Made by a program: the position numbers
Shown here: positions 18,001 through 21,000 of the stretch, one piece after another
Numbering within the stretch: position 1 is the stretch's first letter
How the letters are laid out: every line of letters begins with the position of its first letter
Origin: Escherichia coli
GTDB taxonomy: Bacteria > Pseudomonadota > Gammaproteobacteria > Enterobacterales > Enterobacteriaceae
Length of the DNA stretch: 64,000 bases
Direction: 5' to 3' (one strand)
Assembly (NCBI RefSeq): GCF_030013595.1
Contig: NZ_CP122768.1

Positions 18001-21000
18001 CCTTGTATTGCCGGAAAAGCCTGCCGAGAGCGAAGGCATTAGTTTTTTGGGTAAATGGTTTGAATCGGAATCAGCTAAAGCTGAGCGCCACGCCGAAAAT
18101 CTTCGCCGGTGGCAGCAGGAGCTGATTGATGTGGAGCGTGAGAATACCCTTCGACAGCACCGGTACCAGCAACAACGGACGGCCTGGGCCGAACAGTATG
18201 CAAACTGGAAGTTTGAAGCTGAAGAACATGAAAAACGGCTCGCCACGGCTCAGGCAGATGCCCGGCAGCAGTTCCGGACAGACGCCGCGTTTTTCGAATC
18301 ATACCTGGCGGGTGTGCTGGCAGAAACTGAATGGCCGCGTGAAACGCTTGTTGCATTTGAAGTAAAGCCGGAGCTATCAGCAGTCCTGCTGGACGTTGAT
18401 TTAGCTGAGATTGAAGATTTCCCTGATAAGATTTACGGCGTTAATGCCCGGGGAACGGAGCTGACGGAAAAAGCCATGACGCAAAAAGCCGTACGCGAAA
18501 ACTATGCCCACCACGTCCATGGCTGCTTGTTCCGCCTGGTCGGTATCGTTTTACATACGCTACCTTTCGACAACGTGATTGTGTCAGGCTTTACGCAACG
18601 GGTCAGTAAGCGGACCGGCTATCTGGAGGATGAGTATATCCTGTCCTGCAAATGCACTCGCAGCCAGATGTCGTCAGTAAATTTTGCAGGCATAAAACAC
18701 ATTGATCCGGTTGAAGCGTTAGGCGATCAACCGGTTATTCGAAAGATGAGCAGTACCTTCATTTTTCAGCCTATTGAACCACTAACCCTTTAAGCAGGCT
18801 AAATCTTACGATGCAATTAAATACCAGACAGGCCCGGATTTTTAAGCTTGCCAACTTACTGGGCACCGGCAAGCCCGTTTCCGCTGCCGACATTATAACC
18901 AGTCTGGAATGCTCTGAGCCGACATTAACCCGGGCCCTCAAAGAGCTACGCGAGTCATATTCTGCGGAGATCAAATACAGCAAGGCAGGTCATTCCTATC
19001 ATCTCGTTAATCCGGGCCAGTTGGATAAAAAGACCCTCCGCCGGATGAATGAAGCGCTCGCACAGAATGCTGAACTGAAAACCGGTGAGTCCACAGGGAA
19101 GGTCGTACTCGATAAGGATAAAAAAACAGCCGTGTCATTATCGCTACGCATGCGGATTCTAAGAAAAATTGACCGTCTGGCTGCGCTGAGTGACTCGACC
19201 CGAAGTGAAGCGGTAGAGAAGCTGGCTCTGCACTCCGTTGATGAACTGATAAAAGAATACAGCGCTAAAAAGTCCTGACGCTAAATCTCAGACCGGGGTG
19301 AAAACTCCGGTTTTGTCATATTTCACCTCTGTATTGGCGTGATGCAAAATGGCATCTGAATCGATCATGGTTTGGCATCCATTTCCGATCACAGTTTGGC
19401 ATCACAATCGATCACGATTTGGCATGCTTCCGCTCATTGATTGGCATCCTGGTGTCGTTACGGGGAAGTCATCTTCACAGGGATCTTCAGTCAGTTAGCA
19501 TTACCGACATCCATTCACCAACTTACCGGAGATAATCAATGTCAAAACCCCGATGGACGCTTGATCAGAAAAAACATCACGTTGCCGCATGGCGCGCCAG
19601 CGGCCTTACCCGTGAACAGTACTGTGAACTTTACGACATTCCGTTTAAATCCCTGCGCCAGTGGCCGCAGGATGTCGCAAAAGCCGAAAAACGAGCCAGA
19701 GCACCAGAAATTATTCCTGTTTCAGTATCTGGCTCTTCCGGAATGACTGATGGCAGACCATTGTCGGATGAGCCTGTCACTCTCTTCCTGCCCGGTGGTA
19801 TCCGGATGTGCTGCCAGCCTTCTCAGTTAACCGATGTTTTCCGGGCTCTTCGCCATGCTGACGCCTGATAACGTATTCCTGGTCGTAAAACCCGTCGATA
19901 TGCGCCGGGGTATCGACACACTGACACAGTACGTCCAGAACGAACTTAACGCTGCATGGCATGACGGTGCTGCTTTTGTCTTCACCAATAAAGTCCGCTC
20001 CCGCATAAAAGTTCTCCGGTGGGACAAACATGGCGTATGGCTGTGTACCCGACGACTGCACCGGGGAAGCTTCCGCTGGCCCCGGAAAGGTGATGCCACA
20101 TGGCATCTCACACAGGATGAGTTTCACTGGCTGGTCTTTGGGGTTGACTGGCAACAGGTGAAAGGGCATGACCTGGCAAAATGGGTATACCAGGAAGAAC
20201 CCGAAGATGCTCAGAGCAACGCAATAACTCAATGAAATATAATGAATATCCATGCGTGATGTCATATAATCCACCGCATGGATATCTCGCTTCTCAGTAC
20301 CACCAGTGACCCTGAACAGCTTCGCGCTCTGGCAATTGCCATGGTGCAAAAAGTCATGGCTGAGAATGCAGAACTTCAGAACCGTATCCGCATCCTGGAA
20401 GAGCAGATGAAGCTCGCACGCCAGCAGCGTTTCGGTAAAAAATGCGAATCGCTGGCCGGGATGCAGCGTTCCCTGTTCGAAGAGGATGTTGACGCGGATA
20501 TCGCAGAAATCTCGGCGCATCTGGACAAACTGCTTCCTCAGACCGGGGACGAAGAAAAAACAACAACACGTCCTGTTCGTAAGCCCTTGCCTTCACCTCT
20601 TCCCCGTGCTGAAAAGGTTATCCCGCCAGCTGAGGAACGTTGTCCTGACTGTGATGCCCCCCTGCACTTCATTCGCGATGAAGTCAGCGAGAAGCTGGAA
20701 TATATTCCGGCACAGGTCGTGGTCAACCGCTATATCCGCCCGCAGTACAGCTGTCCCTGCTGTGAGAAAGTGTTCAGCGGAAAAATGCCGGCACATATCC
20801 TTCCGAAAAGTGCTGTTGAGCCATCGGTCATCGCACAGGTTGTCATCAGCAAATATACCGACCATCTGCCCCTGTATCGCCAGCAGCACATTTTCTCCCG
20901 AATGGGGGTGGAGCTCCCCGTCAGTACAATGGCGGATATGGTCGGTGTTGCTGGCGCTGCACTGGCCCCGCTGGCAAAATTGTTACGCCACGAGCTTCTG

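Follow-up and report, generated by a model that had tools for sequence, protein, structure and literature searches.

Organization of the region downstream of terW

The window, i.e., the whole 64-kb stretch of Escherichia coli DNA that was analysed, contains an array of five direct repeats located between terW and the tnpA gene of an IS66-family element, as stated in the preliminary description of this DNA. The coordinates of the features are summarized in Table 1. The TGGCAT motifs of the array, all of them on the + strand, follow each other at spacings of 23, 24, 23 and 22 nt, and GATCA is found in three of the units, starting at 19363, 19387 and 19410. Tandem Repeats Finder delimited a period-23 array at 19350–19425, and a repeat search of the window recovered four in-register copies of 21 nt with 71–100% identity. 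The array is real and non-random. TGGCAT occurs 29 times on the + strand of the window, which gives an expectation of about 0.045 per 100 bp, and in 500 shuffles preserving block composition no 100-bp stretch contained more than two TGGCAT, versus the five observed. The earlier claim of a five-repeat TGGCAT array with 22–24-bp spacing and GATCA in three units is confirmed by these results.

Table 1. Features of the window around the repeat array (coordinates are positions in the 64-kb window)
Feature	Coordinates	Strand	Components or remarks	Evidence
terW	18811–19278	+	Not functionally linked to the array	ORF; annotated in RefSeq in the identical region of O157:H7
Backbone of the ter island after terW	19279–19342	+	Insertion site of the IS21-family element	Collinearity with L004 and L005
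Orphan left terminal inverted repeat (L-TIR), ISSso4-like, IS21 family (almost certain assignment)	19343–19451	+		Homology to the tips of istA/istB-bearing elements
Parts of the module	19343–19451	+	Terminal TG (19343–19344); 7-nt tip TGCAAAA; five repeat units	
Five TTGGCAT blocks	19350–19447	+	TGGCAT at 19350–19355, 19373–19378, 19397–19402, 19420–19425 and 19442–19447	
CGATCA blocks	19362–19436	+	19362–19367, 19386–19391, 19409–19414; decayed CGCTCA at 19431–19436	
Left part of the IS66-family element IS66-A	19452–21108	+		NCBIfam matches to IS66 TnpA and TnpB
Genes of IS66-A		+	tnpA 19539–19868; tnpB 19834–20235; 5′ part of tnpC from 20278	
Complete IS682-like element of the IS66 family within tnpC of IS66-A	21109–23641	−		GTAAGCG termini, read from the sequence

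The true limits of the repeat-bearing module are 19343–19451, rather than the 19350–19449 given before. Its first part reads TGCAAAA-TGGCAT-ctgaat-CGATCA-tggtt-TGGCAT-ccatttc-CGATCA-cagtt-TGGCAT-cacaat, and the remaining part CGATCA-cgatt-TGGCAT-gcttc-CGCTCA-ttgat-TGGCAT-cctg. Unit 4 has GCTCA (19432–19436) at the place where all the other copies examined have GATCA, and it was because this GATC had decayed to GCTC that GATCA was visible in just three units in the preliminary description. Unit 5 retains TGGCAT, and the half-site that should follow it (AGTCA in intact copies, GATCA in a Yersinia copy) is replaced by the IS66-family element. Compared to its closest full relative, the L001 copy described below, the array of the window carries two substitutions, one of which abolishes a GATC; the substitutions in the remnant are consistent with neutral decay.

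Two other kinds of feature were considered for this segment. A Rfam scan of 19100–19700 at E ≤ 1 gave no match to an RNA element. A coding repeat was also rejected: the W-H motifs of the 49-aa ORF at 19349–19498 are no more than a translation of the repeats, in DNA that belongs to an insertion sequence end. At least one RefSeq genome (hit H3) carries this ORF as a hypothetical protein, an annotation that is almost certainly spurious.

The array as an independent module

Megablast of positions 19280–19540 versus 5,426 complete E. coli genomes resolved the region into three unrelated pieces, with boundaries at 19342/19343 and 19451/19452, the latter being uncertain by 1 nt as G19451 is common to the IS21-family and the IS66 elements. 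The first piece (19280–19342) matches ter islands that end their similarity at 19342, e.g., those of O104:H4 and of IncHI2 plasmids. The second (19343/19350–19451) matches by itself, with as many as 35 occurrences in one genome, in chromosomes and plasmids, with no annotated feature. The third (19451–19540) matches alone beside tnpA genes of the IS66 family. Since the matches come in separate pieces, the array is a 109-bp module of its own set between two unrelated sequences. The junction is conserved in 583 genomes. The array was found in 446 plasmid records and in hundreds of chromosomes, at loci that have nothing to do with ter, for instance at nikR-rhsB or near raffinose genes. The plasmids include IncF, IncHI2, IncI and other types.

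This distribution bears on the possibility, raised in the preliminary description, that the repeats are operators for TerW, a winged-helix protein; such an array would control genes of the ter island. The array follows the terW stop codon at a distance of 65 bp and its phased repeats look like arrayed regulator sites, which would suit such a role. However, the ter islands of an O104:H4 strain (L004) and of an IncHI2 mcr-1 plasmid (L005), with terW at 98–99% identity, cease to match the window precisely at 19342 and show no TGGCAT array after that point; the array is present at hundreds of loci unrelated to ter; and a terminator-like hairpin stands between terW and the array. The co-conservation with terW across ter islands expected of an operator was not found, and the probability of this reading is practically negligible. 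In the search for the repeat elsewhere, which had been proposed as a check, the repeat was absent after terW in the islands of L004 and L005, and present as the tip of IS21-family elements.

The hairpin mentioned occupies 19290–19313, 12 bp past the terW stop, with the arms AGACCGGGG and AACTCCGGTTT joined by tgaa and followed by a T-rich tail. It is kept in the O104:H4 and IncHI2 ter islands.

A second reading takes the array for subterminal repeats to which the transposase of the neighbouring IS66-family element would bind; the array abuts this element, 88 bp upstream of its tnpA. Against it, independent copies of the IS66 end (H19–H22) match the window only from 19451–19453 onward, and the locus L006 displays the same IS66 end (GTGTCGTTACGGGG...) preceded by an unrelated left flank, up to GTGTCGTTACGG, without the array. 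In addition, no intact copy of this IS66 variant was seen with the array inside its target duplications. The array is therefore not a constant part of the IS66 ends wherever this element occurs, and we consider this reading extremely unlikely. The earlier proposal of transposase-binding repeats was right as to the kind of sequence but not as to the element, which belongs to the IS21 family (ISSso4-like). Likewise, the repeats are not confined to the end of this IS66 variant, a situation that had been foreseen as one that would make them its own subterminal repeats; instead, the array travels with istA and istB.

The complete ISSso4-like element at other loci

Five independent loci with fuller copies were examined: one on an E. 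coli plasmid (L001), two on E. coli chromosomes (L002 and L003), one on a Shigella sonnei plasmid (L007) and one on a Salmonella plasmid (L008). In all five, istA starts about 100 bp after the array and is followed by istB, and the RefSeq name given to these genes is "IS21-like element ISSso4 family". Both proteins scored above the profile cutoffs: IstA of L002 scored 283.6 bits with NCBIfam NF033546 (IS21 family transposase, cutoff 160) and IstB scored 257.8 bits with NF038214 (IS21 helper ATPase, cutoff 200).

The limits of the element could be read from the comparison of L002 with L003, two unrelated loci with nikR-rhsB and raffinose-type surroundings, which have exactly 2,640 bp in common at 99.8% identity. 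This common element starts with TGCAAAATGGCAT and ends with GGAATACGCA. The full copies of L002, L003 and L007 begin with TG (TGCAAAATGG), end with CA (GGAATACGCA) and are flanked by direct target duplications of 6–7 bp, namely GTAACG, GACTGG and CTCAGGC, respectively. The module of the window is 93–98% identical to ISSso4-family left ends over the whole 109 bp (98.2% to the five-unit copy of L001), and its TG at 19343 comes directly after the last base common to the intact ter islands.

At the other end of the element the units are inverted. Read inward, the right end begins TGCGTAT-TCCGCT-ctatt-CGATCA-cggat-TGGCAT and, from this last block, continues as TGGCAT-cgaagtc-CGATCA-gcgat-TCGCAT-ccatt-CGATCA. 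There are three inverted units in L002 and L007 and two in L008. The left end has six units in L002, L003, L007, L008 and L009, and five in the window and L001, which are missing one whole unit, while the L010 fragment has three. This variation, seen at L002:3971-4107, L001:4001-4109, L010:3199-3260 and the right ends of L002, L007 and L008, takes the form of whole-unit deletions, which apparently arose through recombination between units. Apart from the 23-bp units, an extra inverted motif occurs just inside both arrays, at L002:4108-4135 (CCGGGAATTAACTCTTTTC) and, as the reverse complement, at L002:6515-6540 (CCGGGAACTTAACTTTTTC).

The data on full copies are also relevant to another early suggestion, namely that the array consists of iterons, or is a partition site or the relic of an origin, left by a plasmid from which the ter region descends. 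The 22–24-bp period, the GATC sites and the many occurrences on plasmids are features that such a reading would accommodate. However, on plasmids as elsewhere, the complete array is always the tip of the 2,640-bp element that carries istA/istB and is flanked by target duplications; inverted copies of the units lie at the other end of this same 2.6-kb element; no rep or par gene adjoins the array at any locus examined; and the IncHI2 ter regions lack it. Neither an adjacent rep gene with an origin nor a distribution by replicon type was found. Like the array, plasmid iterons are direct repeats with a period of about 22 bp. The array differs in having no rep gene or origin around it; it stops at the terminus of an IS and has its mirror image at the opposite end of that element. 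Hardly any credence can be given to a plasmid-replication origin of the repeats.

Considering all these results, the segment 19343–19451 is almost certainly the left terminal inverted repeat, standing alone, of an ISSso4-like IS21-family element. The full copies show the features of an IS21-family end: TG...CA termini, repeats of about 23 bp inverted at the other end, two blocks about one helical turn apart, istA followed by istB, and target duplications; of all this, the window retains the left end only. The array is thus of a type already known, an unannotated fossil end of a known IS21-family insertion sequence.

Structure of the repeat unit and comparison with other transposon ends

A consensus was derived from 33 units belonging to nine element ends, and reads tyCGATCA-nnrt-TTGGCAT. 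Both blocks are near-invariant (1.5–2.0 bits per position), while the linker has about 0.4–1.1 bits. The centre-to-centre distance of the blocks is about 10.5 bp, GATCA and TGGCAT are always separated by 5 nt, and successive units by a linker of 6–8 nt. GATC is kept in 32 of the 33 units, the single exception being unit 4 of the window. In copies at about 84% identity, from Salmonella and Yersinia, the blocks are kept and the linkers changed. The register of the unit is ambiguous, with the tip-proximal TGGCAT, at position 8, having no upstream GATCA partner.

This layout can be compared with that known for the IS21 family from the 3.4 Å cryo-EM structure of IS5376 IstA and accompanying biochemistry (PMC10122671). 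The terminal inverted repeats of the family consist of multiple direct repeats (L1/L2 and R1/R2) placed 23 bp apart, each of them formed by two conserved blocks (CS1/CS2) with about 10 variable bp between them; the blocks are contacted by HTH-1 and HTH-2 of IstA, an IstA tetramer synapses two supercoiled ends, and integration needs two complete repeats per end (PMC10122671). As the structural layout of the array matches that of IS5376 on every point, the repeats can be assigned as docking sites for IstA in the intact element. By analogy with IS5376, IstA would bind precisely these blocks. The several units per end would let an IstA tetramer synapse both ends on supercoiled DNA, IstA would then cleave at the terminal TG/CA, and the IstB ATPase would help to integrate the element. 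The preliminary description was correct in reading the array as a series of protein-binding sites spaced by about two helical turns.

With respect to ISSso4 itself, the module of the window has the same terminal TG, unit sequence and unit order as the left end. It differs in that only the end is kept, in the five-unit form found also in L001 and not in the six-unit form of most full copies examined, and in that unit 4 is without GATC and unit 5 without its inner half-site, the IS66-family element starting there. With respect to IS21 and IS5376 (PMC10122671), the ISSso4-like elements share the direct repeats of about 23 bp at both ends, the two blocks per repeat, the TG...CA termini and the istA plus istB genes. 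In contrast, the sequences of the blocks are unrelated and lineage-specific, and those of the ISSso4-like elements contain GATC and are not especially GC-rich, unlike those of IS21/IS5376. The number of repeats is also different, 5–6 at the left and 2–3 at the right versus 2–3 in IS21/IS5376, the six units of the left end clearly exceeding the "usually at least two" given for the IS21 family. IstA of ISSso4 has 511 aa versus the 400 aa of the IstA of IS5376 that was studied.

The ends of Mu (MuA sites) and Tn7 (TnsB sites) also have phased transposase-binding repeats with left/right asymmetry, an analogy drawn in PMC10122671. Unlike the ISSso4-like elements, they depend on other transposase families and other site sequences; the likeness is one of layout, and no homology is claimed.

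Two other IS21-family members were inspected by eye. The ends of IS21 proper (L001) and of IS100 (L010) are too different in sequence to align. The IS100 ends (L010:4150-6300) have repeated GATC-containing motifs, GTGATCCAC and TTGATCCAC, and GATCC repeats. Dam sites inside the terminal repeats may be common in the IS21 family in Dam+ hosts.

State and probable history of the copy in the window

When the full 2,640-bp element was compared by blastn with the 64-kb window, the only match was at 19350–19451; no istA, istB or right end of the element was found in the window. The array of the window is thus an inert fossil, a dead solo end. A query made of the array plus the start of istA gave contiguous matches in 266 E. 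coli genomes, and on O157-type chromosomes it matched over the array only, at one or two places, which indicates that the remnant is there an orphan without its cognate transposase.

The ter islands of L004 and L005 are collinear with positions 15780–19342 of the window (99.4% and 98.3% identity, respectively) and then diverge. In those islands, terW is followed by the spacer and then by genes for vWA, TerD-family, TerY-C and PP2C phosphatase proteins (L004:3563 onward). None of these genes, of the terY/terX side, is present anywhere in the 64-kb window, and the cut in the island coincides exactly with the insertion point of the IS21-family element (19342/19343).

To the right, the insertion of IS66-A, or a deletion associated with it, probably truncated the IS21-family end inside unit 5. 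The tnpC gene of IS66-A is itself interrupted by a complete element whose transposase has the RefSeq name "IS66-like element IS682 family" and which is flanked by a perfect 8-bp duplication, GAGAAAGA, at 21101–21108 and 23642–23649. The 3′ part of IS66-A tnpC resumes after the IS682-like element and extends to about 24360. IS66-A is related to ISEc49 (about 88%). Its right end was sought in order to see whether a target duplication surrounds a simple insertion. No inverted copy of its left end was found in the window, including 24360–24800 after tnpC, and the homology boundaries after IS66-A tnpC are diffuse in other genomes. The right end was thus not located, and may have been truncated or have diverged.

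A sequence of four events is the likely history of this arrangement. An ISSso4-like element would first have entered the spacer that follows terW, at the site GGCGTGA|GGGAG. Its fifth repeat unit would then have received an IS66-family element, or else an IS66-associated deletion would have ended there. The remaining part of the IS21-family element and the terY/terX side of the island would have been lost afterwards, and finally the IS682-like element would have entered tnpC of the first IS66 element (21109–23641). The order of the middle steps is our inference.

It could be asked whether the remnant, although dead as a transposon end, has been co-opted as a SeqA-binding or Dam-sensitive GATC cluster, or as a promoter or landing pad for IS66 tnpA or for island stability. 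Three GATC sites 23–24 bp apart, and a junction kept in 583 genomes, could be taken as indications of this. However, shared descent or transfer of the island at 99–100% identity accounts for that conservation; of the four GATC sites, one has decayed, in the lineage of the window only; and the array contains no promoter-like match, the sole one (19474–19501) being inside the IS66 element. Co-option of the remnant thus seems very unlikely, and an inert solo end of an ISSso4-like element remains the preferred interpretation.

GATC sites of the element and significance of the finding

The remark on GATC in the preliminary description is accurate as far as the sequence goes, and applies to the element as a whole. 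In the full copies examined there are 5–6 GATC sites at the left end and 2–3 at the right, and eight of the 13 GATC sites of the 2,640-bp element are located within the two terminal arrays. In the units of the ISSso4 clade, GATC is the core of one conserved half-site, and for this reason its conservation alone is no proof of control by methylation. It is nevertheless conceivable, though rather doubtful, that binding of the ISSso4 transposase, or the synapsis of the ends, is gated by methylation or by SeqA on the hemimethylated, phased GATC array. A coupling of transposition to the passage of the replication fork is established for IS10, IS50 and IS903. A search of the accessible literature found no paper linking the IS21 family with Dam or GATC, and the papers found that name ISSso4 merely list it in plasmid annotations. 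If methylation gating were true, it would couple the transposition of the ISSso4 clade to replication-fork passage, and the solo array of the ter island would be a residual cluster of SeqA- and IstA-binding sites. For the dead remnant of the window itself, Dam gating is of little relevance.

Concerning the island, the identification of the array removes a tempting false lead, be it a TerW operator or a relic of a plasmid origin, from the tellurite-resistance island of EHEC. It also shows that a 109-bp IS21-family end is unannotated in RefSeq or, in one genome, is covered by a spurious hypothetical protein, and it dates the nested IS events by which terW and the terY/terX side, once parts of one ancestral island, were split. 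Beyond annotation its importance is small. The array is a piece of ordinary genome debris. Of mild general interest is the ISSso4 group as such, with its unusually long arrays, its variable number of units and a Dam site in each unit.
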